Assembly (NCBI GenBank): GCA_040384565.1
Contig: JAZKJC010000015.1
Span: 2,063 to 66,062, forward strand
From: Patescibacteria group bacterium
GTDB taxonomy: Bacteria; Patescibacteriota; Saccharimonadia; Saccharimonadales; JAZKJC01
Direction of reading: 5' to 3'
Length of the DNA stretch: 64,000 nucleotides
Numbering within the stretch: position 1 is the first letter of the stretch; every line of letters begins with the position of its first letter. Below the pieces are notes generated by a model. The model worked only from the letters and a program-made list of their open reading frames with translations, did no database searches and had not been told where the DNA came from. This document shows positions 805 to 61,051 of this stretch, in pieces. Made by a program: the position numbers and the translations under genes.

Positions 805-832
805 GAGCAATGAGCACAGAGCAATGAGCAGC
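805..832. repeat. tandem heptamers GAGCAAT/GAGCACA/GAGCAAT/GAGCAGC
   Basis: Four consecutive 7-nt units read directly. The same word family recurs inside tlyA (41796-41837). Confidence 0.8.
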
Positions 833-853
833 GTATATTTTTTAAACTTATGC

Positions 854-882
854 TTGACAAAAAAGCTATATACTGCTAGAAT
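854..882 (+). promoter_or_regulatory. sigma-70-type promoter TTGACA-17-TAGAAT
   Basis: TTGACA 854-859, 17-nt spacer, TAGAAT 877-882. Lies 33 nt upstream of ATG 916, which has an AAGGA SD. Confidence 0.55.
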
Positions 883-915
883 ACCTTACGTAGATAACAA
901 TAAAAAGGAACTGTA

Positions 916-1434
916 ATGCTACTAAGACGGAATAGAAAACAAGCACAAGCTCCCCTTGAAACAACAGAATCAGTACGCGGCAAATCAGCTGAATACATGA
1001 GTAATTACGAAAAAGCCTATAATGATAGTGATGAACACGCAGCTAGGGCTAAAACTGCTCGTAATGGCAAGACTTTAGTAGAATCATATCGGGATGAGCT
1101 TGCAGTGGTGGAGAGAATTTCACAAGAAGCATCAGATGGCTCTGATTCATTATCAATGAGGAGGCTAGGGGCTGCCTTTAGAGTTAAGGGACTTGACGAA
1201 GAACTAGCCGCAGACAGATTGATGAAAAAAGCAAACGAAATAGCTGACAAGGATGCAGGTGGTCATTATCGAGCCAATCCTGACACTTACTATGAGGCAG
1301 CACTTGAAGACGCGGTTAAGGCCGGGGAGAATATCCAAGTAGTAGCTACTCCAGATCAAGCATCAGCAGAAGCTGTACAATCAAAAGCTACTCCAAGTCC
1401 TGAGCGTCCTGTTTACTACAGTTCCCCACACTAG
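916..1434 (+). CDS. hypothetical acidic protein
   Basis: 172-aa ORF with SD AAGGA and its own consensus promoter. No motif recognised. Confidence 0.5.
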   Translation: MLLRRNRKQAQAPLETTESVRGKSAEYMSNYEKAYNDSDEHAARAKTARNGKTLVESYRDELAVVERISQEASDGSDSLSMRRLGAAFRVKGLDEELAADRLMKKANEIADKDAGGHYRANPDTYYEAALEDAVKAGENIQVVATPDQASAEAVQSKATPSPERPVYYSSPH

Positions 1435-1481
1435 ATCTCCCCGACATTACTACGATAAAGAGCAAAAAGCTTTATTCTTAT

Positions 1482-1516
1482 GCTATGAGCTACCAGCTAT
1501 AAGCTATAAGCTATAG
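1482..1516. repeat. tandem heptamers GCTATGA/GCTACCA/GCTATAA/GCTATAA/GCTATAG
   Basis: Five 7-nt units ending 2 nt before the dnaG ATG (1519). Confidence 0.8.
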
Positions 1517-1518
1517 AT

Positions 1519-3267
1519 ATGGATGCTGTTGAGGATATTAAGTCCAGGCTTGCGATTGAGGATGTTATAGGTGAATATGTCCAGTTAAAGCGTGCCGGGC
1601 GGAACTTTAAGGGCAAAAGCCCGTTTAGCGATGAAAAGACGCCTAGCTTCATGGTGAGTCCTGAAAAGCAAATTTGGCATGACTTTAGCAGCGGTAAAGG
1701 CGGTAATATATTTAGTTTTGTTATGGAAATGGAGGGGTTGGACTTTAAGGGCGCGCTTGAGCTGCTGGCCCGCAAAGCTGGTGTTGATTTGGATCAGTAC
1801 AGAGGCAGCAGTAGTAACACTCAGCTCAAAGAGCGGTTATATCAAGCCCTAGAGGTAGCAGCTAGGTTTTACCAAGTACAGTTTAGTAAAAATGAGATTG
1901 CGCTGGACTATGTGCTAAAAAAAAGACAATTCACCAAGCCAACGGCTCTGGAGTTTCGCTTAGGTTACGCGCCTAATAACGGCAGCGCCCTTATAGATTT
2001 TCTGGCCAAGAAAGGCTTTACGGAGCAGGAGGTCCAAAAAGCCGGGCTGCTTACCAAGCGTTACAAGGGGCCAGGTGATATGTTTCGGGGGCGGCTGATG
2101 ATCCCGCTGCAGGATCCGCAAAGCAGGGTAATTGGCTTTACCGCCAGATTGCTAGGGGATGAAGACGGCCCCAAGTACATAAATACACCATCAACGCTTT
2201 TGTATGACAAGTCGAGGCATGTCTATGGCCTGCACTTAGCAAAAGACCAGATACGCAAACAGGGCTTTGCGGTACTAGTGGAGGGCAATCTTGACGTGAT
2301 TGCCAGCCATCAGGCAGGGGTGAGTAATGTGGTAGCGACAGCGGGAACAGCGCTGACAGAGCCGCATCTAAAGACTTTAGGGCGCTTTGCAAGCGATGTG
2401 CGGCTGGCTTTTGACGCGGACAAAGCCGGCCTGGCCGCCACCGAGCGGGCAATCCCAATTGCTAGCAAAGTAAACGTGGCATTGAGTATTATCACACTGC
2501 CGGAGGGCAAGGACCCGGATGACCTGATCCGGGATAATCCTAAGCTGTGGGCGGCGGCTATTAATAAGCATACCTACGCGGTTGACTGGCTGATCAAGCG
2601 TTATCAAAAGCAGCTGGACCTGGACAGTGGACAGGGCAAGCGGCGCTTTAGTGATCTGTTGCTGCCAACAATACGTGGTCTGCATGACGCCGTTGAACAA
2701 GATCATTACATCCATGAACTTGCTAAGATTACGGGGGTAAGAGTAGAAGCATTGGATACAAAATTTGCCGTAGACGAACCCCAAAAGCGTTTGCGCAAAA
2801 ATCTGAACACTCGCCGTGTTCAGACCGATCAAATGCAGCTGGAATGGGCTAAAACCCAGGACCACTTATTGTCACTGGCGTTGATGCGGCCAGACTTGCG
2901 TGATCAGTTGGATTTGCTGGAAGCAGAGATGCTCCCGCAGGAGACAGCCCGCCAACTCCTGGAATACTTGCAGATGCATCCAGACTTTGACGGCGTACTT
3001 AATAAAGCGCCGCTATTGCAACCAATCACAGACTATGTCAAAATAGTGGCACTACAGTACGAGGCGTTATTTAATGATCTCGATGAGCACGAAGCGCGTT
3101 ACACCGCGAATCGGCTCCGGATCCGCCTGATTGACATGTTTGTGAAAAGCAAAAAAGTTCAAATTGCCGATGCCTTGCAGGAAGCAAACGAGGAAACATC
3201 CCAAAAATTGCTCGCCCGTGCCAAGGCACTAGATAATTTACTAAAAACCAGCCAAGAAACATATTAG
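1519..3267 (+). CDS. dnaG: DNA primase DnaG (zinc-ligand-less N-terminal domain)
   Basis: Primase N-terminal block SPFSDEKTPSFMVSPEKQIWHDF. TOPRIM block VLVEGNLDVIASHQAG...AFDADKAG. 582 aa. Confidence 0.9.
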   Translation: MDAVEDIKSRLAIEDVIGEYVQLKRAGRNFKGKSPFSDEKTPSFMVSPEKQIWHDFSSGKGGNIFSFVMEMEGLDFKGALELLARKAGVDLDQYRGSSSNTQLKERLYQALEVAARFYQVQFSKNEIALDYVLKKRQFTKPTALEFRLGYAPNNGSALIDFLAKKGFTEQEVQKAGLLTKRYKGPGDMFRGRLMIPLQDPQSRVIGFTARLLGDEDGPKYINTPSTLLYDKSRHVYGLHLAKDQIRKQGFAVLVEGNLDVIASHQAGVSNVVATAGTALTEPHLKTLGRFASDVRLAFDADKAGLAATERAIPIASKVNVALSIITLPEGKDPDDLIRDNPKLWAAAINKHTYAVDWLIKRYQKQLDLDSGQGKRRFSDLLLPTIRGLHDAVEQDHYIHELAKITGVRVEALDTKFAVDEPQKRLRKNLNTRRVQTDQMQLEWAKTQDHLLSLALMRPDLRDQLDLLEAEMLPQETARQLLEYLQMHPDFDGVLNKAPLLQPITDYVKIVALQYEALFNDLDEHEARYTANRLRIRLIDMFVKSKKVQIADALQEANEETSQKLLARAKALDNLLKTSQETY

Positions 3268-3338
3268 TAAACAGCTAACAGTAAACAGTCTACAGCTAGG
3301 CCTGTCCCGACTGTCATCTGTCATCTGTATACTGTAAA
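3268..3338. repeat. heptamer-periodic inverted-repeat element (NNNACAG x4 / CTGTNNN x4-5), family C
   Basis: ACAG cores fall every 7 nt across 3268-3295. CTGT starts at 3311, 3318, 3325 and 3332, with a further one at 3302 (9-nt step). The element starts directly after the dnaG stop. Confidence 0.8.
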
Positions 3339-3356
3339 CTAATCGACGAAGGAGAT

Positions 3357-4478
3357 ATGATGGCAGATGACGTACCGGTTGCTGATGATAGTGTTGATGA
3401 GGTTTTGTTGAAATCTAAAACCGATTTATTAGAAAAAGCCAAAAAAGACGGCAAGATAAAACAACAGGATATTTTTGTTGCCATACCCGACACCCCAGAA
3501 CATGTTGATATCCTGGACCAACTTTATACAGAGCTGGCTGATTTGAACATAGTCATCACCGGTATTGAGCCTACTACCGGTGGTAATGAATGGACCGCTG
3601 AGGACGACGAAGAGATCGTGATTGATGAAAAGGTCTACCTGGACGATATCGCGGATGACTCCGTGCGTTTGTACCTGCGTGAAATTGGTAAAATTCCACT
3701 ACTGACCGCTCCGGAAGAGCTGGCGCTGGCTAATCAGGTGGTTGCTGGTGACAAGGGAGCTAAAGACAAGATGGCGGAGGCCAATATGCGTCTGGTTGTT
3801 TCTATTGCAAAGCGTTACGTGGGGCGTGGTTTGGACTTACTGGATTTGATTCAGGAAGGGAATACCGGACTGCTACGGGCCGTTGAGAAATTTGACCCGG
3901 ATAAGGGGTTCAAGTTCAGTACCTACGCTACCTGGTGGATCCGTCAAGCCATAACCCGTGCTATTGCTGATCAGGCCCGTACCATTCGTATCCCTGTTCA
4001 CATGGTGGAAACTATTAACAAACTGCTGCGGACACAACGCCGTCTGACCCAGGAATTGAACCGCGAGCCATCCAACGAAGAAATTGCCAAAGAAATGGAA
4101 ATTGATGTAGACAAAGTCGAACACATCATGAAGATTAAGCAGGATATATCTTCACTGGATGCTTCTGTTAGGGATGACGAAGAAGACTCGGTACTAGCTG
4201 ATTTTATCGAAGATGAAGACACAGTCAGCCCGGAAGAGTCAGCTACAAACCAGCTACTTAAAGAGCACGTCAAAGACATGCTAGGTGCACTGACAGAGCG
4301 TGAGCAGAAGATCCTCAAGCTACGCTTTGGCTTGGAAGATGGCAAAAGCCACACCTTGGAAGAGGTAGGGCAGGAATTCAGTGTTACCAGAGAACGCATT
4401 CGCCAGATAGAAGCCAAAGCCCTAGCCAAACTGCGTAAGCACAAAGACGCCAAAAAACTCCACGATTACATCAAGTAA
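3357..4478 (+). CDS. rpoD: primary-type RNA polymerase sigma-70 factor
   Basis: Region 1.2 [12 protein letters not shown]. Region 2 [40 protein letters not shown]. Region 4.2 [33 protein letters not shown] upstream. Confidence 0.9.
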
Positions 4479-6413: not shown

Positions 6414-7271
6414 ATGAGAGCTAGCCCCGAGCAACAAATATTCAAAAAGGGCAGTATCACGTATTATTTCAGTTCCAAATTCTTCACAAAAAAGGTTCGC
6501 GAAGATGTATTCAAACTCTACAGCTTTGTGCGCATTGCAGATGACTATGTGGATGCCATACCCCAGCAAACCCAACAATTTCACAAGTTGCGCAAACTAT
6601 GGAACCAAGCAAAGCTTGCCCCGCCTACCAACCACCAACTACCAACTATCAGCTCCTTGAACGAGCGTGTCGCCAGAAATATGATAGATGTTACGCGCAA
6701 ATATGACTTTCAGACTGAGTGGATCGAAGCTTTTCTAGACGCTATGCAAGCGGATATAGACAAAAAAACCTATAAGACTCTTGATGATACCCTGGGCTAT
6801 GTGTATGGCTCTGCCGAGGTCATTGGCCTGATGATGGCTAAGATCATGAGGTTGCCCAAAGAATCGTTTGAAGCGGCTCAAATGCAGGGAAGAGCAATGC
6901 AATGGATCAACTTTATCCGCGATATAGAAGAAGATAACGCTCTGGACCGCCAATATTTCCCCCAATCAGATCTGGAGAAATTCGGCATTAAAGACCTGAG
7001 CTCTAAGACTTCAAGAGCTCACCCAGAAAAGTTTAAAGAATTTATGAGATTTCAACTTAGCCGCTATTACGACTGGCAGACGGAGGCTTACAAAGGCTAT
7101 AAATTCATCCCCAGGCGATTACGCGTACCACTTGCTACCGCGGCAGACGTATATAACTGGACGGCGCGGAAGATAGATAAAAATCCATTGACCGTTTTTG
7201 AACAAAAAGTAAAACCGGGCAGTGGGCGGGTTTTAATCCGGGCCTGCAGGCAATTATTGGCCGGGATTTAA
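6414..7271 (+). CDS. phytoene/squalene synthase family protein
   Basis: YSFVRIADDYVD and NFIRDIEEDNALDRQYFP Asp-rich motifs. Starts 3 nt after the polyprenyl synthase stop. Confidence 0.8.
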   Translation: MRASPEQQIFKKGSITYYFSSKFFTKKVREDVFKLYSFVRIADDYVDAIPQQTQQFHKLRKLWNQAKLAPPTNHQLPTISSLNERVARNMIDVTRKYDFQTEWIEAFLDAMQADIDKKTYKTLDDTLGYVYGSAEVIGLMMAKIMRLPKESFEAAQMQGRAMQWINFIRDIEEDNALDRQYFPQSDLEKFGIKDLSSKTSRAHPEKFKEFMRFQLSRYYDWQTEAYKGYKFIPRRLRVPLATAADVYNWTARKIDKNPLTVFEQKVKPGSGRVLIRACRQLLAGI

Positions 7272-10281: not shown

Positions 10282-11340
10282 GTGGATATAGAGCCGTTAG
10301 ATGAGGATTTTGGCGATGATCCGCTGGAAGATCCATACATTGATGAAGATATGTTGGCTGATGATGATTTGGATGCGCCAGATCCCCAACATACCGCAGA
10401 AGCAAGTATGAGAGACGTGGAAAACTATCGTGACGCGGGTTCCGAAGATTTATTAAGGATATATTTAAACGAAGTAGGGCAACATCCTCTTCTTGCTAAA
10501 GCCGACGAGCAAGAACTGGGGGCAAAAATGGTAGCTGGTAGGGAAGCAGCAGAGCAACTTCTAGAACAGAACGGCGCTGACCCAGCCCAGAGACGAGTCT
10601 GGAGGAGGACGGTACTTGGAGCTGAAAGAGCTGAAACCAGATTTGTCCAATGCAATTTGCGGTTAGTAGTATCAATTGCAAAAAGATATCAGGGGACTGG
10701 CTTACCTCTGCTCGATTTAATACAGGAGGGCAATTTTGGATTGATCCAAGCTGTAAGGAAATTTGATCATACCAAAGGCTTTAAATTTTCAACATACGCA
10801 ACCTGGTGGGTTAGGCAAGCAATTCAGCGCGGGGCTGCCAATACTGCCCGCACTATTCGATTGCCCGTTCATGCTGGTGATGTATTGGCCAGAGTCTTAA
10901 AAACTCAAACTCGCTTGGGGCAAGAGCTTGCGCGAACACCTACCCTGGAAGAACTGGCGGCTGAGTTAGAAATATCACGCTCAAAAGTAGCTGAGGTATT
11001 ATCTTCTCCTAGTACCACTAGCTCGCTAAACGACCCGTTGGACTCTGAAGGAAGCGGAGAAGAGCTTGGAAGTTTAATTGAGGATACAGACGCACTTTCC
11101 CCAGTTGATGAAGCAGTTCGTTCAAGCAGACAGGACGAACTTGACACACTACTAAGTAAACTAGATCCTTATGAAAGGGAAGTTTTGCGTTTTCGCTACG
11201 GGCTTGATACAGGCGTACCTCCTACACTGCAAGAAGTAATGGATCGGTTCGGAATTTCACATGACAGGCTTACGAGGATTGAAAACAGGTCACTGGCTGT
11301 GATGAGACAAGCTGCAAAAAAACGTCCTGGCGCTAGGTAA
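10282..11340 (+). CDS. sigma-70 family factor, group 1/2-like paralog
   Basis: [54 protein letters not shown], and 4.2 HTH TLQEVMDRFGISHDRLTRIENRSL. GTG start is uncertain. Confidence 0.85.
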   Translation: MDIEPLDEDFGDDPLEDPYIDEDMLADDDLDAPDPQHTAEASMRDVENYRDAGSEDLLRIYLNEVGQHPLLAKADEQELGAKMVAGREAAEQLLEQNGADPAQRRVWRRTVLGAERAETRFVQCNLRLVVSIAKRYQGTGLPLLDLIQEGNFGLIQAVRKFDHTKGFKFSTYATWWVRQAIQRGAANTARTIRLPVHAGDVLARVLKTQTRLGQELARTPTLEELAAELEISRSKVAEVLSSPSTTSSLNDPLDSEGSGEELGSLIEDTDALSPVDEAVRSSRQDELDTLLSKLDPYEREVLRFRYGLDTGVPPTLQEVMDRFGISHDRLTRIENRSLAVMRQAAKKRPGAR

Positions 11341-11411: not shown

Positions 11412-12563
11412 ATGGTAGCTACGCATAACACGACCCCAGTTATAGCAGGCGATGGCCCAGTCGCAGAGACTTTACCGCCAGAAATAGCGCAAATGCTAGA
11501 AAATGTTGGCGGCGCTGCTATTTGGGGAGCTTCAGAGGCAAGTGCCCCCACCACAGACAATTGCGAGGCTGGTGGTGAAACTGCGATAGTGGCCTCTGAT
11601 TACCAGGGCTCTGTAGCTCCCAACATACCTACTACTAATCGTAATGATAAAGAGATTGATCTTGTGAGGTTATATCTTAACGAGATCGGAAAATATCCGC
11701 TGCTTACCAAGTCAGATGAGCAGCGGTTGGGGCAGAGCATGGAGCAAGCACGTGTCGCAGCCGATACAGTGGCAGCCTCTAGGTCTTTGTCAGCTAAAAA
11801 GAGAGCAGAACTAGAAAAAATTATAGTTGAGGGTAGGGAGGCGTACTTTACTTTAATTCAGTCCAACCTCCGCCTGGTTGTACATGTTGCAAAGAAATTT
11901 AGAAATAGCGGGATGCTGTTGCTTGACTTAATACAGGAAGGCAACCTGGGTCTTATGGGCGCCGCGCAAAAATTTGATCACCACAAAGGATTTAAGTTTT
12001 CTACGTACGCGACCTGGTGGATCCGGCAAGCAATTCAGCGAGGTATAGCCGACAAAGCCCGAAATGTTCGACTACCTGCCCATTCCGTAGACCGGCTGGA
12101 TCAGATTAAAAAAACTCAAGCACGCCTAAGAGAGCAGTTAAACAGAGAGCCAGATATGGAAGAGGTTGCCGAGGAGTTAAAAAATAAGAAAAATGAATTA
12201 AGAGAATTTCTTCAGGCTACTGCCGACACTGTATCAATATTTAACCCTGTCACTTCAGAAGGAGATATGGATATTGCCGACAGAATCGCGGACCCATCCA
12301 ATGATCCAGAGCGACAACCGCCAGATCCTACAATGCCAATGGTTGTAGGGAAGCTCATGACGTTACTAGATGAACGAGAGCAAGAAATTATAAAAAGACG
12401 TTTTGGTTTTGGTGGAGCAGAAGAAACATTACAAGAAATTGCCGACCATTTTCACCTAAGTAGGGAACGCATCCGCCAAATTGAAGCTAGGGCTAAATCT
12501 AAGATGGCTCACCCTTCCGTCGGGATACCGTCTGCATTTATTAATGACTACTTGCGCGAGTGA
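11412..12563 (+). CDS. sigma-70 family factor, group 1/2-like paralog
   Basis: [54 protein letters not shown], and [23 protein letters not shown]. Confidence 0.85.
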   Translation: MVATHNTTPVIAGDGPVAETLPPEIAQMLENVGGAAIWGASEASAPTTDNCEAGGETAIVASDYQGSVAPNIPTTNRNDKEIDLVRLYLNEIGKYPLLTKSDEQRLGQSMEQARVAADTVAASRSLSAKKRAELEKIIVEGREAYFTLIQSNLRLVVHVAKKFRNSGMLLLDLIQEGNLGLMGAAQKFDHHKGFKFSTYATWWIRQAIQRGIADKARNVRLPAHSVDRLDQIKKTQARLREQLNREPDMEEVAEELKNKKNELREFLQATADTVSIFNPVTSEGDMDIADRIADPSNDPERQPPDPTMPMVVGKLMTLLDEREQEIIKRRFGFGGAEETLQEIADHFHLSRERIRQIEARAKSKMAHPSVGIPSAFINDYLRE

Positions 12564-15275: not shown

Positions 15276-15829
15276 ATAAAATCATTACCTTTGCAACAAG
15301 TAATAAAGGTAAAATCCTTCAGGCAAATACCTGCTTACAGAAATTTGGCATAACAGTTACACCAGTTGGTCTGGCTGTGCCGGAAATACAGTCACACGAT
15401 TCGCTAAAAATCTCAGAAGCTAAAGCAAAAAGTGCTTACCAGATAATTGGTAAATCGCTGGTGATCTGCGACTTCATGTGGTCCATTAATGCCCTCAATG
15501 GATTCCCCGGTGGTTACATGAAAGATATAGTCCACTGGTTCAAACCTGATGATTTTCTGGCACTAATGCATGGCAAAAAAGACCGAACAATATTGCTTAC
15601 AGAGACAGTCACGTATTATGACGGCTCCATACTAAAGAGTTTCTCATCAGAGTATCCGGGCAACATTACGCAAGACGCAAGGGGTAAAAGCGGAGTTTCG
15701 ATTGACCAGGTAGTAGTTTATGAAAGTCAAAGCGATACAATTGCGGAATGCTTAGATCAGAAAAAGCCTACCAGAGATTTAAGTGAGTCAGCGTGGCAAA
15801 AATTTGGAAACTGGTATGTTAGCAAATAA
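15272..15829 (+). CDS. non-canonical purine NTP pyrophosphatase (RdgB/HAM1-like)
   Basis: IITFATSNKGKILQA N-terminus is typical of the family. There is no ATG near it; candidate starts are CTG 15272, ATC 15281 and ATT 15284. The track's ATG 15152 would overlap polA by 124 nt. Confidence 0.6.
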   Translation: MNKIITFATSNKGKILQANTCLQKFGITVTPVGLAVPEIQSHDSLKISEAKAKSAYQIIGKSLVICDFMWSINALNGFPGGYMKDIVHWFKPDDFLALMHGKKDRTILLTETVTYYDGSILKSFSSEYPGNITQDARGKSGVSIDQVVVYESQSDTIAECLDQKKPTRDLSESAWQKFGNWYVSK

Positions 15830-15906
15830 CTCAGCCAGCTTAAATATAGGAGTGATATTCTTTAACCATTCGTAATAGCTTAAAGTATATTTGCAAGAAA
15901 GGACGT

Positions 15907-43718: not shown

Positions 43719-43721
43719 AAC

Positions 43722-45713: not shown

Positions 45714-45738
45714 ATAACACCTATAGAGGACAGTCCTC
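45714..45738. repeat. right 25-bp terminal inverted repeat with REP-like palindrome
   Basis: ATAACACCTATAGAGGACAGTCCTC. Confidence 0.9.
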
Positions 45739-45826
45739 GTAAGTACTCTAAGTAGTATGGTTTGAGTTATGGCTAAGGTGAAGAGAGTGCAGTTTTAATT
45801 TTTTCCTAACACAAAAAGGATCCTGG

Positions 45827-48047: not shown

Positions 48048-48161
48048 AGCCTGACAAAATCCCTCAATTAACACGTATATAGCCTCCTGAGCATAATGTG
48101 GGTCATAAGCAATGTAAATCAGGCTCTTAGAGATCTGACCTCTTTCCTCCTCTCTTTCCCC

Positions 48162-48364
48162 CCTGAACTATTATCGGCAGGGCAATGAACCAGTCTGGCT
48201 TCGTACCAGCAAGATTTTAGATTTATTCAGCAGCCGAGAAGGTTACATGGACTTTGTCTCCGACTATGAAGAACTTCGTGATATGTTGGCCGAACTCAAG
48301 CATCAGCTAGCAGATCAATAAAATACCAACTATCAGAGATTAACACCTATAGAGGACTGTCCTC
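48162..48364 (+). repeat. direct duplicate of the RAYT gene 3' end plus REP hairpin (copy of 45536-45738)
   Basis: About 160 bp identical to 45536-45695, then about 80% identity through the REP palindrome. Confidence 0.9.
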
Positions 48365-48419
48365 TTGGTGCCCTCTTGGTGCCCTCTTGGTGCCCTCTTG
48401 GTGCCTGGCCTCTTGGTGC
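48361..48419. repeat. tandem 11-mer CCTCTTGGTGC x4 (+1 after CTGG)
   Basis: Read directly. The first unit overlaps the REP palindrome arm. Confidence 0.9.
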
Positions 48420-48443
48420 CAAGACTAAAAGTTACACTATTTG

Positions 48444-48472
48444 TTGACTTTTTAAGCTTCTTGCGATATCAT
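48444..48472 (+). promoter_or_regulatory. promoter TTGACT-17-TATCAT, 7 nt before ATG 48480 (leaderless candidate)
   Basis: TTGACT 48444-49; TATCAT 48467-72. Confidence 0.45.
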
Positions 48473-48479
48473 TGAACAT

Positions 48480-48761
48480 ATGAATGTAACTATATCCCTC
48501 AAACAGCTGCGAACCGACCCACGCGAATACATTCGGTTACTAAATAGTGGATATGAAGTGTCGATAACTGAGCATCGCCATGAGTTAGTACGGGTCAAAG
48601 CAAAAGTTAATCCTAAAACTCCCCAAAGAGGGGACAGCAAAGCTTTGCTTGAGGCTATAAGAACACTACCGCGCATTAAAGACCCTGCGCCCCATGTGGA
48701 TACACCGACAAGATTAAGACAAATCAAGGCTGAACGCTTCGCGAGAAAATATGGGTCATGA
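48480..48761 (+). CDS. type II antitoxin (Phd/YefM-like) paired with PIN toxin
   Basis: Small ORF overlapping the PIN gene by 4 nt (ATGA). The N-terminal pattern is antitoxin-like. Confidence 0.6.
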   Translation: MNVTISLKQLRTDPREYIRLLNSGYEVSITEHRHELVRVKAKVNPKTPQRGDSKALLEAIRTLPRIKDPAPHVDTPTRLRQIKAERFARKYGS

Positions 48762-49132
48762 TTCTACTGGATACTAATATACTGCTCGAAATATTAGAAA
48801 ACCGTCGGAAGCATGATGCGGTGACGCGGGCAATAGCGAATAGCAGTCAACCATTTGCGATAACCGTTCTTACGATAAGTGACGTGTTTTATATAGCCGA
48901 AAGGAACAAACTGGATTTTGGTAAAGTCGAAAACTTGATAAAAAGCCACCAGTATATCGATGTAGTTAGCGCGGATGTTGACTGGGCGCTGGCGTATTAC
49001 AAGGGCAAAGATTTTGAAGATGCCTTGCAGGTTGCCGCTGCTCTGCGAAAAAAATGCACGGCCTTTATGACAATTGATTCATCACTCGCAAAAAAGTACA
49101 ACAAGTTTTTGGCAGTAGACCTAATAGTATAA
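48758..49132 (+). CDS. vapC: PIN-domain toxin VapC
   Basis: MILLDTNILLEIL with conserved acidic positions (D5, FEDAL, TID). Confidence 0.8.
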   Translation: MILLDTNILLEILENRRKHDAVTRAIANSSQPFAITVLTISDVFYIAERNKLDFGKVENLIKSHQYIDVVSADVDWALAYYKGKDFEDALQVAAALRKKCTAFMTIDSSLAKKYNKFLAVDLIV

Positions 49133-54434: not shown

Positions 54435-54625
54435 CCCTGTGAAATTATTAATGCAAAAGGGTTGCGGATAAGCATGTATACCCATGAGAAACTACCTTCC
54501 GGCATTTAGGCTCACCCTTTCCGGCCAGAAGCTTCCGAAATTTTATAACCATACCTTAGGGTATGCTGATAAAATTTCAAAACTTTCTGGCTCGGCAATC
54601 ATCGACCCTAAAAACCGAAAAGCAA

Positions 54626-54654
54626 TTTCACATGGGTATAGCTTATGCTATAAT
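54626..54654 (+). promoter_or_regulatory. candidate pil operon promoter TTTCAC-17-TATAAT with extended -10 TGc
   Basis: TTTCAC 54626-31; TGCTATAAT 54646-54. Leaves an about 170-nt 5' UTR before pilM. Confidence 0.4.
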
Positions 54655-54824
54655 CAAGCCAATATGAGCTCTATTAAATCAAAAATACATAGCTATTGTT
54701 CATGGGTTGCTTCCAGCAAGAATTTTTGCGATAGAGCATTTGATACAGGGCTGAATCTGATAATTAAGGGAGTGGGCAAACGCAGTGGGGTTAAGAGACT
54801 GCAACCTGTCCATATACGGATAAA

Positions 54825-55868
54825 ATGAGTTTATTAACAGGAGTATCTGATTTTTTTGGGCTAGATATCGGCACGACTGCCATACGTATGGTGCAGCTGC
54901 AAGGAACCGGTCCATTAAAGAGTCTGGCAAAATATGGCTATCTGCCAATTGATATAAAAACCGCGCAGAGTGACTCCAAAGCCGATCAGCTAAAGTTGCT
55001 AGAAGGCGTAAAAGAACTGCTTAACCAAGCGCGTGTATCAACCAAAAACGCAGTAGTAGGCATACCTTCAGGAAGAGTTTTTACCACGGTGACAGATTTT
55101 GATCGCTTACCCCCTAATGAGCTCTCCAAATCTATCCGCTATCAAGCAGAATCCCTAATTCCTACGCCTATTAGCCAGTCTACGCTGGACTGGGCACAAA
55201 TAGGTGATTCGCCAGCCGATAAAAACAAGGTTGAGGTACTCTTAAGCAGTGTTTCAAATGACTTTGTTGAGGGAAGACTGGATATACTGGAATCCATCGG
55301 TCTAAATGTTATTGCCTTTGAACCTGATGCTATGGCACTTACCCGGGCAATTCTGACACCCGATTCCACCACCCCTCAAATGATTATAGATGTCGGCAAT
55401 CTTACTACTGACCTGATCATCGCAATGAATGGTGCCCCAAGGCTTACCCGAGCGATTCCAACTGGCTCAGACGCTATCATAAAATCAGCTATGCAAAACC
55501 TAAATATTGATCAAGCCCAGGCGACTCAGTTCGTCAATAAATTTGGCTTATCCAAAGATAAACTTGAGGGGCAGGTTCACCAAGCAATCATTGGGACTAT
55601 AGATATTTTGATGGGCGAAATTGACAAATCCATCAAGTTTTTTCACAAACGCTATGGTGACAATGCCAAAATAGAGCGGATAATTGTAACTGGTTCAGCC
55701 TCGGCATTGCCAGAATTTCCATTGTATATAGCTAATAAATTCGGTGTCAGCGTAGAGATTGGCAACGCCTGGCGCAATGTAGCATTTGATGCAAACCGAC
55801 AAAACGAACTTTTAGCATTATCTAACCATTTTGGCGTAGCAGCCGGACTTGCGGAGAGACAAGAATGA
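54825..55868 (+). CDS. pilM: type IV pilus assembly protein PilM
   Basis: Actin-like ATPase fold with FFGLDIGTTAIRMVQL N-terminus. 347 aa. Confidence 0.85.
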   Translation: MSLLTGVSDFFGLDIGTTAIRMVQLQGTGPLKSLAKYGYLPIDIKTAQSDSKADQLKLLEGVKELLNQARVSTKNAVVGIPSGRVFTTVTDFDRLPPNELSKSIRYQAESLIPTPISQSTLDWAQIGDSPADKNKVEVLLSSVSNDFVEGRLDILESIGLNVIAFEPDAMALTRAILTPDSTTPQMIIDVGNLTTDLIIAMNGAPRLTRAIPTGSDAIIKSAMQNLNIDQAQATQFVNKFGLSKDKLEGQVHQAIIGTIDILMGEIDKSIKFFHKRYGDNAKIERIIVTGSASALPEFPLYIANKFGVSVEIGNAWRNVAFDANRQNELLALSNHFGVAAGLAERQE

Positions 55869-55872
55869 ACAA

Positions 55873-55980
55873 ACAGTCAACAGTCAACAGTCAACAGTCA
55901 ACAGTCTTTGGGGCTGAAAGCCGTTCTTTGATTTTTGTTCTTAGAACTGTTAACTGTCAACTGTTAACTGTCAACTATTT
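55873..55980. repeat. ACAGTCA x4 (+ACAGTCT) / ACTGT(T/C)A x4 inverted heptamer element
   Basis: Left units 55873-55907 and right units 55946-55980. Starts 5 nt after the pilM stop. Confidence 0.9.
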
Positions 55981-55995
55981 GATCGGAGATCAAAG

Positions 55996-56682
55996 ATGAT
56001 TCAGTTTAACTTGCTGCCTGATGTAAAGCGTGAATATGTACGGGCACGTCGTAATAAACGTATGACACTTCTGATTGCCTCATTGGCAGCCGGCGCAGCC
56101 TTTGCAGTTTTAGTGATACTTTTTGTAGGGGTACAGATCTTTCAAAAGAAATATTCGGCCGATCTTTCAAAAGATATAAAATCAGAGAGCAGCAAGCTTA
56201 AAGGCATACAAGACCTGGAAAAGATTCTTACAATCCAGAACCAGCTGGCTATTCTACCGGAACTCCATAATAAAAAGCCGGTTGCTACCCGTACCCTTGA
56301 TTATTTCAAGCAAGTCACCCCGGCAAAGGCCAGTATTGCTAAAATGAACCTGGATTATGATACTCAGATTATGAATATTACGGGTGCAGCTGATGCCATC
56401 AGTACTATCAATAAATTTGTCGATACGCTCAAATTTACTACTTATAAAACGGAAGATGGCAAGGAAGGCAATGCATTTAATTCGGTGGTACTTAGCACCT
56501 TTGGAAGGGATGACAAAGGGGCCAGTTATCAAATAACATTCAAATTCGACCCGATTATATTTTCCAATGATAGCCCTGTGGCGCTGACTGTACCGGCAGG
56601 TAAGATTACCACCCGCTCTGAAACTGAAAAACCCGATTCATTATTTCAACCCTTAAGTAACCCTAATCCCACAGGACAATAG
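55996..56682 (+). CDS. pilN: type IV pilus assembly protein PilN-like
   Basis: MIQFNLLPDVKRE... followed by a single TM, the typical PilN N-terminus. Confidence 0.7.
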   Translation: MIQFNLLPDVKREYVRARRNKRMTLLIASLAAGAAFAVLVILFVGVQIFQKKYSADLSKDIKSESSKLKGIQDLEKILTIQNQLAILPELHNKKPVATRTLDYFKQVTPAKASIAKMNLDYDTQIMNITGAADAISTINKFVDTLKFTTYKTEDGKEGNAFNSVVLSTFGRDDKGASYQITFKFDPIIFSNDSPVALTVPAGKITTRSETEKPDSLFQPLSNPNPTGQ

Positions 56683-56688
56683 ATTATT

Positions 56689-57363
56689 ATGGCTGCTAAT
56701 AAAATTATATCCAGTAAACGGCTCCAAATAGACAAAGCAAATGCCAGCATGGTTATTTTTCTGGCTGCGGCATCATTCGTTATTGTATTTTCACTGTTAG
56801 CGAGCCGGGCATTGCTGGGACAGCGCAGTTATCAAACACGCGTCATCAAAGAAAAAAAGAAAGCCCTAACCCAACTTAAGGCCAATAATCAGGCAGCGTC
56901 ACAGCTGGCTAATACTTATAAAACTTTTGTATCAACTCCGGATAATATTATAGGCGGCAACCCGACTGGAAGTGGAGACCGCGACGGTGATAACGCCCGG
57001 ATTGTGCTGGATGCTCTGCCAAGCAAATATGATTTCCCGGCATTGGCAACCAGCCTGGATAAAATCCTCAATGATAAGAAGTATAAAATCAATAGTATTA
57101 GCGGCACGGACGATGAGCTTGCCCAGTCCACCCCCACAGCTACTGCCGCGCAACCTGTGGAAATTCCTTTCCAGGTAAGTATAAGCGGAAGCTTTGATGC
57201 TATCCAGGGGTTGCTGAATGTTTTCCAGAACTCCATAAGGCCCATTTACCTGCACAGTATGGATTTGAGCGGAAGCGACAATAACCTGACAATAAACGTT
57301 ACGGCTGGAACGTACTATCAACCCGAAAAAAAGATTAACATTACTACAAAGGTGGTGAAATGA
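56689..57363 (+). CDS. pilO: PilO-like pilus assembly protein
   Basis: TM plus coiled-coil plus C-terminal domain, in the PilO position of the operon. Confidence 0.5.
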   Translation: MAANKIISSKRLQIDKANASMVIFLAAASFVIVFSLLASRALLGQRSYQTRVIKEKKKALTQLKANNQAASQLANTYKTFVSTPDNIIGGNPTGSGDRDGDNARIVLDALPSKYDFPALATSLDKILNDKKYKINSISGTDDELAQSTPTATAAQPVEIPFQVSISGSFDAIQGLLNVFQNSIRPIYLHSMDLSGSDNNLTINVTAGTYYQPEKKINITTKVVK

Positions 57364-57370
57364 ACCAAAA

Positions 57371-57448
57371 ACGTAGAACGTATAACGTAGAACGTATAAA
57401 GGGGAAAGCGGCGGGATTGAAGCCAGCCGTAATACGTTATACGAATCC
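57371..57448. repeat. heptamer/14-mer inverted-repeat element, family D
   Basis: ACGTAGAACGTATA x2 (57371-98), about 29/31 identical to 23477-23507. Right arm CGTAATA/CGTTATA/CGAATCC. Confidence 0.8.
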
Positions 57449-57475
57449 CATATTACTGCGACAGAATGGAGCTTT

Positions 57476-57721
57476 ATGAAACAGAAGGACATTATTTTGA
57501 TAATAGTGGTTGTATTCATTAGCGGTGTGCTATCGCTGGTATTGTCTAACATGCTAATATCTTCCCCTAAAAACAGACAAGAAAAAGTGGAAGTGGTAGA
57601 AGCGATATCATCTGATTTTACGCAACCTGACAAAAAATATTTCAATGCTAATTCCATAGATCCTACCCAGATTATCAGAATTGGCGAAAACAACAACAAT
57701 CAGCCATTTAAAAAGCAGTAA
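57476..57721 (+). CDS. small single-TM protein in the pil operon
   Basis: 81 aa; TM IILIIVVVFISGVLSLVLSNMLI. Confidence 0.5.
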   Translation: MKQKDIILIIVVVFISGVLSLVLSNMLISSPKNRQEKVEVVEAISSDFTQPDKKYFNANSIDPTQIIRIGENNNNQPFKKQ

Positions 57722-57759
57722 AAAGTTATGGTACACAGAGAGCTCTTAAGCATGCCGGG

Positions 57760-57866
57760 TTACCGTTTACCGTTTACCGTTTACCGTACATTAGCCATGG
57801 CCTTTTTTCCATGGAAAACAGAAAACAGAAAACGTGCCGAAAACAGTAAAAAGTTACCAGTAAACG
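57760..57866. repeat. TTACCGT x4 / AAAACAG x2-3 inverted heptamer element
   Basis: Units at 57760-87 and 57815-35, with central CCATGG..CCATGG. Confidence 0.8.
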
Positions 57867-57885
57867 ATTTGGCTGGAGGTCGCAT

Positions 57886-59682
57886 ATGAGTGTATTGTCA
57901 GCTGCTACGCAACAACTGGTAGAAGAAAGCCTTATCAAAGAAGGTGTTTTAAGTGATGAACAACTTAAGACCTTTAAAACAAAGGCCGAAGAGTCAAAAA
58001 CACCTCTTTTTACTTTGCTACTACAAGAAAAACTACTCAATAGTGAGATTTTAACTAAAACTACAGCACACGTTACAAAACTACCTTACGTGAACCTGTC
58101 TAATGCCAAGATTGATTCGGATACATTAGCTTTATTGCCAAAAGAAATTGCAGAGCGTTATATGGCTGTGCCATTAGGCGAAATGCAAAGGCGTTTGGTT
58201 GTAGCAATGCTTGACGCGGATAATGTCCAGGCAGTTGACTTTTTATCTAATAAAATTGGCCGTCCATTAAAAGTATATGCTGCCAGTGAAGAGGGGATTC
58301 GACAGGTATTAAAGCAATATTCATTGAGCTTGGACGATAGTGTATCAGACGTTTTTGCACCGGATGAAGCAAAGACCAAAAAAGACGAGGACGATGGTAA
58401 ACCTACCAAAAATAAAACAATCAAAACTATTGTCCAGGACTCGCCTATCAGCAAGGCTCTATCGGCTATATTGGAATACGCGGCCAAGAACCGTGCCAGC
58501 GATATTCATATGGAGCCAATGGAAAAAGAATTCAAAATCCGTTGCCGGGTGGATGGGGTATTAAGAGAAATCATGAAACTGCCTAAAAGCACCGAACCAG
58601 CCCTTGTATCACGCGTAAAGATTCTAAGCAACCTTAAGATTGATGAACACCGTATACCGCAGGATGGACAGTTTACGGTGCATGTCATGGAAAAAGACAT
58701 TGACTTGCGTATTGCTATATCGCCCGTGGTGTGGGGTGAGCAAATTGTTATCCGTTTGCTCGACAAAACCGGCACAAGTCTCAAGCTAGAAGATATGGGT
58801 TATATGGGGCGAGCCCTTAGGGCCATACGCACCGGCCTAAAACAGCCCAACGGTATGATCCTCACCTCCGGTCCTACTGGTTCGGGCAAATCAACGTCTC
58901 TGTATGCTTTGCTCCAGGAAATTATTAGCGATGAAATAAACATTGTTACGCTAGAAGACCCTGTCGAGTATAAAATGGGCGGCATTAATCAGATTCAGGT
59001 TAATGCTGATGTTGGTCTGACTTTTGCTTCAGGTCTGCGATCTATTCTGCGCCAAGATCCAGACGTAGTCATGGTCGGGGAAATACGTGACAAAGAAACT
59101 GCTACACTGGCAGTACAGGCTGCATTAACAGGGCACTTGGTCTTTTCCACGCTACACACTAATTCAGCGTCTGGGATCTTGCCTCGTTTGTTAGATATGG
59201 ACATAGAACCATTTCTAATTGCCAGTACCGTACACACCGTTATTGGACAGCGTTTAGTTCGGCGTATTCCGCAAGACGACAATAAGGTCAGTTATGTCTC
59301 CGATAAAGCAGAAACAGAAGCAATTCATAAGACGCTGGGCGAGTTACTGCCTAAAACAAAAGAAGATATTCCAGCTGTTAGCAAAGATTTAGGCTACGAA
59401 TCCTTGCCACTTGCCACTGAAAACGCTTATACTTTGTTTAAGGGAACCGATTCACCGGAAACCCCAGGCGGATACACGGGACGGATGGGACTATATGAAG
59501 TCTTTGAAATTACCGAAGCTATCCAAGATCTGATATTAAAAAGATCAACCAGCAGTGAAATCCAACGGGCTGCCCAGGCAGAGGGTATGATAACAATGCA
59601 GCAGGATGGTTATCTGAAAGCCTTAGCGGGGTTAACCTCACTGACTGAAGTTAACCGAGTAGCATCCGGGGATAGCGCGTAA
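57886..59682 (+). CDS. pilB: type IV pilus assembly ATPase PilB (GspE family)
   Basis: N-terminal T2SSE_N-like domain. Walker A GPTGSGKST. Asp and His boxes (VMVGEIRDKETA; TGHLVFSTLHTN). Confidence 0.9.
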   Translation: MSVLSAATQQLVEESLIKEGVLSDEQLKTFKTKAEESKTPLFTLLLQEKLLNSEILTKTTAHVTKLPYVNLSNAKIDSDTLALLPKEIAERYMAVPLGEMQRRLVVAMLDADNVQAVDFLSNKIGRPLKVYAASEEGIRQVLKQYSLSLDDSVSDVFAPDEAKTKKDEDDGKPTKNKTIKTIVQDSPISKALSAILEYAAKNRASDIHMEPMEKEFKIRCRVDGVLREIMKLPKSTEPALVSRVKILSNLKIDEHRIPQDGQFTVHVMEKDIDLRIAISPVVWGEQIVIRLLDKTGTSLKLEDMGYMGRALRAIRTGLKQPNGMILTSGPTGSGKSTSLYALLQEIISDEINIVTLEDPVEYKMGGINQIQVNADVGLTFASGLRSILRQDPDVVMVGEIRDKETATLAVQAALTGHLVFSTLHTNSASGILPRLLDMDIEPFLIASTVHTVIGQRLVRRIPQDDNKVSYVSDKAETEAIHKTLGELLPKTKEDIPAVSKDLGYESLPLATENAYTLFKGTDSPETPGGYTGRMGLYEVFEITEAIQDLILKRSTSSEIQRAAQAEGMITMQQDGYLKALAGLTSLTEVNRVASGDSA

Positions 59683-59683
59683 A

Positions 59684-59827
59684 AATAGCCAATAGCTTGT
59701 AGCTGATAGCAGTTAGCTAAAAAGGAATAAGGAAAAGACAATGAAAACACCAGATATCAAACAAGACAATCAGAATCATTCCCATGAGGCTAGGTTATTA
59801 GCTACCAGCTACCAGCTACCAGCTTAC
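59684..59827. repeat. NNTAGCN x5 / AGCTACC x3 (+AGCTTAC) heptamer arms separated by 81 nt
   Basis: TAGC at 59686, 693, 700, 707 and 714. AGCTACC at 59800, 807 and 814. Confidence 0.8.
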
Positions 59828-59847
59828 GTTTCCAAGGGGGGTGTGTA

Positions 59848-60918
59848 ATGGCCGGAGCGCAACCAAGAATTGAAGTTTTACTTGAAGAAGTTATTAAGAA
59901 AAAAGCTTCTGACCTTCACTTGCAAGTGGGCTTACCGCCAATGCTACGTGTGGACGGCGCTTTGACGCCTGTGCCTAGTGCAGAAGCTTTGACGGAAGAA
60001 TCACTAGAAACTCTTCTTTTTGCAGTACTTGATGAAGAGCAAAAGCAAATTTTGCTAAAAGATAAAGAATTTGACTTCAGTTTTGCCTTTGGTGATTTAG
60101 GTCGCTTCCGTGTAAATGCTTTCCACGAAAGAGGCAACTTAGCTGCCGCGCTTCGCTTAATTCCTAACGAAATGATGACAGTGGAGCAGCTTGGTTTGCC
60201 GCCAATTGTAAATAAGTTTGCCGATTACCCTAGGGGCTTGGTTCTAGTAACTGGGCCGACAGGATCTGGCAAATCGACGACACTAGCGGCCATGATTCAT
60301 AAGATTAATCATGAGCGTGCTTGCCATATAATCACCATTGAAGACCCAATTGAATACACTCATAAGAGCCACAAAGCAGTCATTGTGCAGCGTGAAGTCC
60401 ATTATGATACATACTCTTTCTCAGCAGCTCTCAGAAGCAGCCTGCGTGAAGACCCGGACGTTGTGCTCATTGGCGAGATGCGCGATCTAGAAACCATGGC
60501 AGCTGCCATAACCATCGCAGAAACCGGTCACTTGGTTTTTGCGACGCTCCACACTAACTCTGCCGCGCAGAGCATTGACCGTATGATAGATGTTTTCCCG
60601 CCACATCAGCAACCACAAATCCGGGCCCAGCTGGCAAATATCTTGATGGCTATTTGCTCCCAGCGTCTTATCCCGACCATTGGCGGGGGACGTGTAGCCG
60701 CCGCCGAAATCCTGGTAGCAACTCCGGCCGTGCGAAACATCATACGTGAGGGCAAAAGCCACCAGCTGGAAGCAGTCATCCAGACCGGAGCAGAGTTTGG
60801 CATGCAGTCCATGGACAAAACCCTGGTCAACTTAATTCATAACGGTACAATAACATATGATGAAGCCCGTAACTTTGCGGTAGATCTGGATGAAATTGAT
60901 CGTTTAATGAGAAGCTAA
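59848..60918 (+). CDS. pilT: twitching-motility retraction ATPase PilT
   Basis: GPTGSGKSTT, VLIGEMRDLETM, TGHLVFATLHTN. 356 aa. Confidence 0.9.
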   Translation: MAGAQPRIEVLLEEVIKKKASDLHLQVGLPPMLRVDGALTPVPSAEALTEESLETLLFAVLDEEQKQILLKDKEFDFSFAFGDLGRFRVNAFHERGNLAAALRLIPNEMMTVEQLGLPPIVNKFADYPRGLVLVTGPTGSGKSTTLAAMIHKINHERACHIITIEDPIEYTHKSHKAVIVQREVHYDTYSFSAALRSSLREDPDVVLIGEMRDLETMAAAITIAETGHLVFATLHTNSAAQSIDRMIDVFPPHQQPQIRAQLANILMAICSQRLIPTIGGGRVAAAEILVATPAVRNIIREGKSHQLEAVIQTGAEFGMQSMDKTLVNLIHNGTITYDEARNFAVDLDEIDRLMRS

Positions 60919-60924
60919 TTATGA

Positions 60925-61051
60925 AAAACACGAAATCCGAAGCACGAAATCCGAAACAAGCACGAAACTTTCAAACTAGAAACGTATCAGGTTTCGAGCT
61001 TCTAGCTTCTAATTTGTTTCTATTTTCGTGCTTCAGTTTTCAAATTTCGAG
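60925..61051. repeat. CGAAA/TTTCG period-7 inverted-repeat element, family B
   Basis: GAAATCC/GAAGCAC/GAAATCC/GAAACAA. Shares GAAACAAGCACGAAA and AATTTGTTTC with 29575-29725. Confidence 0.8.

Follow-up and report, generated by a model that had tools for sequence, protein, structure and literature searches.

The DNA analysed here, hereafter the window, is a stretch of 64,000 nucleotides (nt) from a Patescibacteria genome of the order Saccharimonadales (assembly GCA_040384565.1, contig JAZKJC010000015.1, positions 2,063 to 66,062 of the forward strand). Many of its gaps between genes, and some of its genes, carry what we term modules, which are small non-coding DNA palindromes of approximately 75-160 base pairs (bp) whose arms consist of degenerate tandem heptamers. 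Saccharibacteria genomes are about 1 Mb in size and hold very little non-coding DNA; in this window, a single repeat class sits in approximately 40% of the larger gaps, as well as in several housekeeping genes. [quoted passage not shown]

The window derives from the Saccharibacteria (TM7, in the candidate phyla radiation, CPR). A search with its PilB protein returned 80 loci, nearly all from metagenome-assembled genomes (MAGs) of Candidatus Saccharibacteria/Saccharimonadales and the best of them 82% identical; this affiliation, together with the conserved gene order, rules out a cyanobacterial origin. Its PilO protein is 100% identical to that of a Patescibacteria MAG at NCBI (locus tag V4702_), the nearest other PilO relative is only 73% identical, and a look-up of the exact PNPase sequence returned no record. 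Genes of the window were mapped with a greedy longest-ORF (open reading frame) rule and then corrected with Pfam, and those of the relatives, whose loci are numbered with the prefix L, were taken from ORFs and tblastn.

Period-7 palindromic modules

Tandem Repeats Finder returned 28 period-7 and 6 period-14 rows among 58 for the window, at essentially all of the coordinates at which an earlier note on this DNA had listed heptamer repeats. Intergenic DNA (7.3 kb) has an identity at lag 7 of 0.326, compared with 0.2675 ± 0.0059 in 100 dinucleotide shuffles (z=10.0), which, for the window, bears out the period-7 excess that the note had proposed to check in this way across the whole genome; the same test gives z=6.0 at lag 14 and z=3.7 at lag 21, and the coding DNA of the window has no excess (lag-7 identity 0.249). 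A uniform array detector found 28 arrays of period 7 in the window but only 1, 0, 1 and 0 of periods 6, 8, 9 and 10, respectively. Nineteen of the 28 lie in gaps and nine in coding DNA, where multiples of three would normally dominate, so the signal is specific to period 7.

The window has 40 gaps that measure at least 60 nt, and at least 15 of them contain a module; the note's claim that most gaps are filled was thus too strong. Inverted arms are present in the ten entries termed inverted modules in the list below, and their minimum free energy (MFE) on the better-folding strand lies at z -2.2 to -10.9 relative to shuffles. Complementary arms had also been described for 57760-57866, where the + strand shows only weak complementarity (z=-0.2) and the - strand pairs mainly through G.U (z=-2.7), whereas the single arm described at 805-832 is indeed an array without an inverted partner. 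Many modules start 0-10 nt after a stop codon (the note had most of them within a few nt of one), but those at 23470-23570 and 32335-32465 lie between divergent genes. The note placed essentially all of its listed elements correctly and missed a four-copy ATTTACC family and the arrays inside coding genes. At least nine unrelated unit cores are represented:

801-830: single array of four ATGAGCA units at the 5′ end of the ORF 140-817 (- strand), in a divergent region; the unit resembles that of the tlyA array
1482-1518: single array of approximately five AGCTATA-type units, with its end 1 nt ahead of the start codon of dnaG
3266-3340: ACAG/CTGT inverted module in the dnaG-rpoD gap, a paralogue of 40722-40805; MFE -21.6 on the + strand and -27.6 on the - strand
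6624-6655: heptamer array within a squalene/phytoene synthase-like gene
13533-13787: two arrays (AAGAAAT x4, CTCTCTC x4.4) within polA, in the linker/exonuclease-like middle region
20322-20450, + strand: in-frame insertion of 43 amino acids (aa) in fpg/mutM (aa 87-129), its first half made of the heptamers TCAGTAA and AACAGAx
23470-23570: CGTA 14-mer inverted module between the divergent rpsT (- strand) and the gene at 23631 (+ strand), arms 95% complementary
25748-25795, + strand: AGCTATC-type in-frame array in truB, directly ahead of the conserved GHTGTLDP motif
29573-29730: CGAAA/TTTCG inverted module in the rpsO-pnp gap, of a family common to 60919-61055 and L014
32335-32465: TTTTCAA/TTGAAAA inverted module upstream of udg, between divergent genes
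39725-39860: ATTTACC/GGTAAAT family, copy 1, upstream of the small ORF 39856-40059 (probable rpsR)
40046-40181: ATTTACC family, copy 2, upstream of ssb, 96-97% identical to copy 1
40722-40805: ACAG/CTGT inverted module in the ssb-efp gap
41793-41941, + strand: module internal to tlyA, left arm of GAGCAAn units at 41793-41842 and right arm at 41913-41941
42150-42275: ATTTACC family, copy 3, inverted, between tlyA and a crp-like gene
42930-43060: ATTTACC family, copy 4, inverted and more diverged
43719-43846: ATTAGC/GCTAAT inverted module between the convergent genes at 43119 (+ strand) and ychF (- strand), MFE z approximately -6 on both strands
55866-55982: AACAGTC x5 / AACTGTY inverted module, pilM-pilN
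57364-57450: AACGTAG/AACGTAT 14-mer inverted module, pilO-g81
57750-57870: TTACCGT x4 / GAAAACA module, g81-pilB
59683-59830: TAGC/GCTA inverted module, pilB-pilT, inserted downstream of the stop codon and ahead of the native Shine-Dalgarno sequence
60919-61055: CGAAA/TTTCG inverted module, pilT-pilC

The earlier note had also proposed a comparison with an independent assembly, and the elements are present in one: the Logan assembly of run SRR26324625 is identical to the window over 54612-58656, three modules included. This identity, and the occurrence of similar modules in MAGs from many studies, rule out an assembly artefact.

Insertion into overlapping gene junctions

The pil operon of the window has the order pilM-N-O-(81-aa gene, here g81)-B-T-C, without a secretin. 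Its synteny holds in all relatives, which allows a direct comparison of junction lengths. Five of its six junctions carry modules:

pilM-pilN: -4 to +11 nt in 71 of 74 relatives; 127 nt in the window
pilO-g81: median -4 nt in relatives (n=68); 112 nt in the window
g81-pilB: median 15 nt in relatives (n=71); 164 nt in the window
pilB-pilT: median 20 nt in relatives (n=79); 165 nt in the window
pilT-pilC: about 0 nt in relatives; 109 nt in the window as called, 145 nt to the probable true start

Because the same junctions overlap or measure less than 20 nt in 70-80 relatives, the modules are lineage-specific insertions. At pilM-pilN, pilO-g81, g81-pilB and pilT-pilC the insert sits directly after the ancestral overlapping start codon (ATGA, ATGAA, ATG and ATG, respectively) and ends with a fresh Shine-Dalgarno sequence and start codon. 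Flanking direct repeats at the inserts amount to this start-codon context only (ATGA, ATGAA, ATG), apart from one possible duplicate of approximately 15 nt of the pilM/pilN junction. The ssb-efp gap was considered as a second orthologous junction and set aside as not comparable, as the relatives have at least 224 nt there, including other genes.

Of 160 related loci, only about 22 have heptamer-rich stretches, and throughout there are next to no arrays of period 8. Expanded junctions are scattered over the branches of a PilB tree (single-gene neighbour-joining), and in many relatives they too contain inverted heptamer arrays, made of other unit sequences.

Relay mini-ORFs across the pil modules

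Short ORFs, which we call relay mini-ORFs, run through the modules of the pil operon, and several share bases with the start or stop codons of the flanking genes:

55865-55999, + strand: relay mini-ORF of 44 aa, joined by ATGA overlaps to both neighbours (own ATG with the pilM stop, own TGA with the pilN start)
57360-57479, + strand: relay mini-ORF of 39 aa, pilO-g81, with an ATGA overlap at both ends
57728-57889, + strand: relay mini-ORF of 53 aa, beginning 7 nt downstream of the g81 stop, with an ATGA overlap between its TGA and the pilB ATG
59741-59848, + strand: partial mini-ORF of 35 aa that begins within the module loop; TAATG joins its end to the pilT start
60921-61070, + strand: relay mini-ORF of 49 aa, starting 3 nt after the pilT stop and ending with GTGTTAG over GTG 61064

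The pilB-pilT junction, where the ORF is only partial, has kept its native Shine-Dalgarno sequence, and the modules at dnaG-rpoD, ssb-efp and rpsO-pnp have no relay ORF.

The arrangement recurs in relatives. All four expanded pilM-pilN junctions (window, L001, L003 and L013) contain an ORF of 40-44 codons with both overlaps. At the expanded pilT-pilC junctions of ten relatives (L009, L010, L011, L026, L027, L029, L031, L041, L048 and L058), the ORF ends with a Cys codon and a stop and has a 7-nt overlap with the pilC start, as in the window; in these ten and the window, the mini-ORFs begin 0-14 nt after the upstream stop (3 nt or fewer except in L011). Relay ORFs are found in 21 of 30 expanded junctions, compared with 5.06 expected when the junction interior alone is dinucleotide-shuffled, and none of 200,000 simulations reached 21 (P<5e-6). 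At least one sense frame is open in 27 of the 30 interiors, as opposed to 14 of 30 for antisense frames. Stop trinucleotides do not differ significantly in density between the sense and antisense strands (0.0505 versus 0.0553), so the frames are open through the placement of stops rather than their depletion. The peptides encoded in different genomes are unrelated in sequence. These features suggest that a junction dependent on a stop/start overlap would tolerate a module only if ribosomes can pass through it. Such junctions offer a natural experiment on the insertions that coupled genes tolerate, these being open, beginning at the old start codon and stopping on the new one.

One contributor to the asymmetry in folding between the strands is the choice of arm sequence: a right arm fully complementary to (AACAGTC)n would read (GACTGTT)n and bring a TGA into every frame, which the arm observed, AACTGTY, avoids.

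The mini-ORFs also matter for annotation. They become called as hypothetical proteins, as the gene calls of the Logan contig already include 55865-55999 and 57360-57479, and the starts of downstream genes become misplaced, as for pilC and possibly truB. The longest ORF of pilC starts at GTG 61028; alignments with relatives begin at its residue 12-13 and the relay ORF ends on GTG 61064, which is probably the true start.

Module families and probable remodelling of the arms

Four groups of modules (ACAG, ATTTACC, ATTAGC with L093, and TTTTCAA with L100) have several copies with full-length homology; each of the others has a single copy in the 64 kb. The gaps of dnaG-rpoD and ssb-efp (3268-3356 and 40723-40822) match at 77% over 93 nt that begin at the stop codon and reach as far as the Shine-Dalgarno sequence. 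Within 3.3 kb lie all four copies of the ATTTACC/GGTAAAT family; three show 94-97% identity to one another, and an indel of 18 nt sets one copy apart. The module at 43719-43846 aligns over approximately 120 nt, across the loop as well as the two arms, with a module that L093 carries after rpsR (79% over an 82-nt BLAST segment), at a non-orthologous site of a different genome; neither copy shows a target-site duplication. Likewise, L100 has a module upstream of efp with 81% similarity to 32330-32470, and L014 has a member of the CGAAA family (rpsO-pnp and pilT-pilC in the window) at pilB-pilT. Overall, family identity amounts to 77-97% within the window and to approximately 75-79% between the window and non-orthologous sites in other genomes.

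Within the arms, perfect 14-nt duplications are found at 23477-23506, 55945-55976, 57370-57399 and 60929-60955, in agreement with the slippage origin that the earlier note had suggested. Convergence cannot yield full-length similarity that includes the loops, and we infer that copying and in-place remodelling must both occur. No difference in unit count is seen between the MAG and the Logan assembly, or within the strain pairs L117/L118 (99.98% identical) and L122/L124 (96.9%, with one 1-nt indel over 4 kb), although these are few comparisons and of assemblies only.

Searches outside the Saccharibacteria gave no match for the four-copy family in a phage collection, and none for 57750-57870 or 29573-29730 in plasmids. 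An exact 25-nt match of (AGCTACC)n between 59800-59824 and enterobacterial conjugative plasmids (E=9e-3) was taken as a probable coincidence; it lies in an unannotated stretch of 27 Klebsiella/Citrobacter/Enterobacter plasmids, for example NZ_CP022277.1 at 38332-38356.

Modules inside genes

Where arrays lie in coding sequence, several are additions to the protein. In fpg, aa 87-129 are skipped in the alignment to MutM structures and are absent from all solved ones, and residues 1-155 match positions 1-116 of the Pfam profile. The array in truB is an in-frame insertion of approximately 16 aa. In tlyA, the left arm is an in-frame insertion of approximately 18-20 aa, and the right arm lies in aligned coding sequence.

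The TlyA loop varies among relatives in a way that points to formation and turnover of palindromes in place. Among 54 homologues from metagenome contigs it has 19-20 residues in 38 and 19-24 in 43. In the window, L100, L115 and L150 it is 20-29 residues longer, with a lag-7 identity of 0.43-0.50 and entirely different units. In L083 (contig Ga0193753_10003993), a perfect palindrome of 15 bp encloses a loop of 5 nt, CGACTTTGCTAGAGG-TCCGT-CCTCTAGCAAAGTCG; its outer bases are the conserved Arg-Asp and Val-Asp codons of TlyA, and L117, L118 and L109 have a palindrome of 10-11 bp.

Folding and strand asymmetry

Nineteen heptamer-rich gaps between co-directional genes were compared across the window and all loci, and the antisense strand folds better than the sense strand in 15 of them (Wilcoxon p=0.012). 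The MFE values of four window modules are:

pilM-pilN: antisense -54.0 (z -10.9), sense -37.1
pilT-pilC: antisense -47.9, sense -33.9
pilB-pilT: antisense -47.3, sense -33.8
ssb-efp: antisense -34.5, sense -23.8

In 341 ordinary gaps, by contrast, the sense strand folds better in 195 and the antisense strand in 146 (p=0.009), and the two groups differ at p=0.0012. The antisense advantage arises because A.C mismatches between the sense arms become G.U pairs on the antisense strand, where G.U makes up 14.5% of pairs compared with 7.8% on the sense strand. An element selected in messenger RNA (mRNA) should fold better as sense, and the opposite is seen, which argues against hairpins of the sense RNA.

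The earlier note had also stated that the modules lack a U-tract and are not canonical intrinsic terminators, and this stands: no T-run follows any module, the sense strand folds more weakly, and scans of the window for canonical terminator-like sites found no enrichment (13 versus 20.8 expected; 28 versus 21.0 expected) and none at modules. The window has no Rfam family and no tRNA.

Origin and effect of the modules

In the reading that we favour, whole modules would be copied to new sites within and between Saccharibacteria genomes, and their arms would be remodelled in place by slipped-strand duplication and loss of 7- and 14-nt units, with complementarity roughly maintained, plausibly by intrastrand template switching. 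The modules would most likely be selfish or neutral DNA rather than regulators, the host filtering only which insertions survive. Three layouts follow from such a filter. In a gap with its own Shine-Dalgarno sequence, a module would simply be tolerated; inside a gene, it would survive only in frame and in a permissive loop; and over an overlapping stop/start junction, it would survive only as an open relay mini-ORF. There, a ribosome would start at the retained old start codon, melt the palindrome by translating it and stop on the new start of the downstream gene, and its passage would preserve translational coupling.

Several points weigh against this reading. Most modules of the window have private units, with at least nine cores, which fits a local origin better than a few mobile families, and no transposase, terminal signature or target-site duplication is tied to the modules, the ATGA, ATGAA and ATG repeats being explicable by selection alone. 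The pilM-pilN spacer measures 115-128 nt and encodes a relay ORF of 40-44 aa in four genomes with unrelated spacer sequence, so the spacer itself could be useful. The strand asymmetry comes from 19 gaps in which all genes lie on the + strand of the loci, and an A+C-rich sense strand may contribute to it.

A purely local origin would have a short inverted repeat grow by 7-nt slippage and template switching with no mobilisation, likeness between sites reflecting a limited vocabulary of preferred units or occasional recombination. It would accommodate the diversity of cores and the perfect 14-mer duplications within arms, as well as the tlyA right arm in aligned coding sequence, the size series of TlyA loops (15-bp palindrome in L083, 11-bp in L117, L118 and L109, heptamer arms differing in four genomes) and the long array of the ACTGTTn unit on a cyanobacterial plasmid. 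We nevertheless judge it unlikely, as convergence offers no explanation for the homology of approximately 120 nt, loop included, between the window and non-orthologous L093, for three family copies at 94-97% within 3.3 kb or for the likeness of the dnaG-rpoD and ssb-efp gaps. Functional RNA hairpins in the operon mRNA, acting as 3′-end stabilisers, RNase processing sites or attenuators, appear improbable, and the 3′-UTR (untranslated region) stabiliser or attenuator role put forward in the earlier note fares accordingly. Many modules do begin 0-10 nt after a stop and reach the next Shine-Dalgarno sequence, several + strands beat their shuffles (z -2.2 to -5.8), the genome has few canonical terminators, the length of the pilM-pilN spacer is conserved in four genomes, and a module sits between rpsO and pnp, where Escherichia coli has a hairpin cleaved by RNase III. 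Against such a role, the sense strand folds worse in 15 of 19 gaps, the reverse of ordinary gaps; ribosomes on the relay ORFs would unwind the hairpin; modules also lie between divergent genes (23470-23570, 32335-32465) and inside coding genes; most relatives have no module at the same junctions; and no Rfam family matches.

Seven being 1 modulo 3, the gain or loss of one heptamer shifts the frame of a relay ORF, and the modules could in principle be contingency switches that toggle the translational coupling of type IV pilus genes. Perfect tracts do lie within relay ORFs ((AACAGTC)5 at 55872-55906 and (TTACCGT)4 at 57760-57787), modules occupy nearly every pil junction, and heptanucleotide tracts mediate phase variation in Haemophilus influenzae (PMC2651432). 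If true, such a slippage switch would be a new mode of phase variation where pili mediate host attachment, giving an episymbiotic Saccharibacterium heritable, reversible, gene-by-gene control of its pilus. We hold it to be very improbable: the tracts have only 3-5 units, the housekeeping junctions dnaG-rpoD, ssb-efp and rpsO-pnp carry modules without relay ORFs, and unit counts are the same in the MAG and Logan assemblies and within L117/L118 and L122/L124. Mobilisation as repetitive extragenic palindromic (REP) or REPIN elements by a REP-associated tyrosine transposase (RAYT) is the account to which we give the least credence, scarcely any. The window does encode a Y1 (IS200-type) RAYT-like protein at 45081-45695 (Pfam Y1_Tnp, 39.4 bits; NCBIfam REP_Tyr_transpos, 39.1 bits, below the cut-off of 80), and the modules form hairpins without target-site duplications, one family containing GTAG. 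This Y1 gene, however, has its own, different hairpin, AACACCTATAGAGGACnGTCCTC, which no module shares, and the conserved sequence that defines a REP family contrasts with the nine or more unrelated cores of the modules.

Relation to known repeats

The STRR1-3 units of cyanobacteria are CCCCAGT, TTGGTCA and CAACAGT, and among the window units only that of (AACAGTC)5 is a rotation of one of them (CAACAGT); all others differ. On a Gloeothece plasmid, ACTGTTn, which is also the right-arm unit at pilM-pilN, is repeated in tandem more than 13 times between genes, and the TTTTCAA/TTGAAAA units of the window are similar to the Hept_L/Hept_R units of Nostoc. Work by Mrazek and colleagues, outlined in PMC4679880 and PMC4692102, describes heptanucleotide repeats as the most abundant class of long simple sequence repeats (SSRs) in many bacteria and raises a speculative link to polymerase slippage. 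Heptamer arrays are patchy among relatives (PMC4679880) and can form inverted pairs, with many units per genome (PMC4692102); known examples include Calothrix STRR, Xanthomonas GGGAATC, Nostoc GGGGAYT (some in inverted pairs), Beggiatoaceae TAACTGA, Geobacter GGGACCG and Nostoc TTTTGAA/TTCAAAA. The earlier note linked tandem heptamers to heterocystous cyanobacteria; the host here is indeed not one of these, but the restriction was too narrow, as such repeats are over-represented in many bacteria (PMC4679880, PMC4692102).

With STRR and other heptanucleotide SSRs, the modules have in common units of 7 nt in 2-7 copies, a mostly intergenic and dispersed location, often within operons, many different units and a patchy distribution among relatives. 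They differ in being nearly always paired into palindromes of characteristic size, in forming families with full-length homology, in being inserted at ancestrally overlapping junctions where they are open for translation, and in their CPR/Saccharibacteria host. RPE, ERIC and BOX elements are likewise palindromic, approximately 100-150 bp long, without a transposase of their own, and located between genes and in frame in housekeeping genes (PMC10969869), but an RPE has a conserved sequence and peptide, whereas the modules have diverse sequences, unrelated peptides and 7-nt arms. The modules are palindromic over the whole element, and no signature of terminal inverted repeats or target-site duplications could be defined. 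REP/REPIN-RAYT systems are also short, hairpin-forming extragenic repeats without target duplications, and a RAYT-like gene is present here, but the modules have no consensus with its flanking REP or with each other. At the hmw promoter loci of H. influenzae (PMC2651432), as here, heptamer tracts lie near or in the frames of surface-structure genes and one unit is a +1 frame change; those tracts have 13-38 units versus 3-5 here, where they lie in palindromes and in housekeeping genes too.

In the literature that we searched, no paper connects intergenic repeats, heptamer or palindromic, with Saccharibacteria. The modules unite an STRR trait, arrays of 7-nt units, with a MITE/RPE trait, palindromes that appear competent for copying and compatible with translation, and add the relay-ORF arrangement. 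The preference for 7-nt repeats extends to a very distant lineage and is tied there to palindromic modules that appear competent for copying, which may help in finding its mechanism. We see a slim chance of something more specific, either phase-variable pilus coupling through heptamer gain and loss or a 7-nt-register activity common to Saccharibacteria and cyanobacteria; the shared units (ACAGT, TTTTCAA) may suggest such an activity over generic slippage.

Other features of the window

The REP-like hairpin of the Y1 gene, GAGGACnGTCCTC, lies on both sides of the gene (45027-45050 and 45722-45745), with a third copy at 48345-48365; the flanking copies are inverted with respect to each other. 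It occurs in none of the heptamer modules, and the earlier note was right to keep them apart from the REP sequence of the RAYT gene. The last 203 nt of the Y1 gene and the hairpin are repeated at 48162-48364 with 96% identity. A perfect 11-nt tandem repeat (CCTCTTGGTGC, x4.1) at 48361-48405 starts inside the right arm of the third hairpin and looks as if it had been seeded by it.

Another element, unlike the heptamer modules, is a nested palindrome of approximately 165 nt with the termini CTATACCCATGA and TCATGGGTATAG, present at 16291-16456 and 54477-54640 in copies that are approximately 75% identical. The former takes up the gap downstream of a NUDIX gene (MFE z=-7.7), and the latter lies in a doubtful ORF, 54484-54828, just upstream of pilM.

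Besides the pil operon, the window contains dnaG-rpoD, two more sigma-70 paralogues, polA, rpsT, rpsO-pnp, the gene for RNase J, ftsK and rpsF-ssb-efp-tlyA. The three sigma-70 family paralogues (regions 1.2-4) lie within 10 kb, at 3357-4478, 10282-11340 and 11412-12563, two of them adjacent. The gene g81 (57476-57721), between pilO and pilB, encodes an 81-aa membrane protein without a Pfam match that is conserved in 71 of 80 Saccharibacteria pil loci and may be an unrecognised component of pilus assembly. In rpsT (- strand), internal repeats of 15, 18 and 30 nt (CTTTTTGGCGGCTGG...) at 23049-23135 presumably encode the repetitive Lys/Ala-rich tail of S20. Two stretches without an ORF of 60 aa or more, at 15276-15906 (631 nt) and 48048-48479 (432 nt), are unusual in a compact genome and match no Rfam family or tRNA. 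Genes of mobile or defence type encode a YafQ/ParE-type toxin (38951-39217), a PIN-domain protein (48758-49132), with a small ORF ahead of its gene, and a fragment of an IS30-like transposase (46323-46967).

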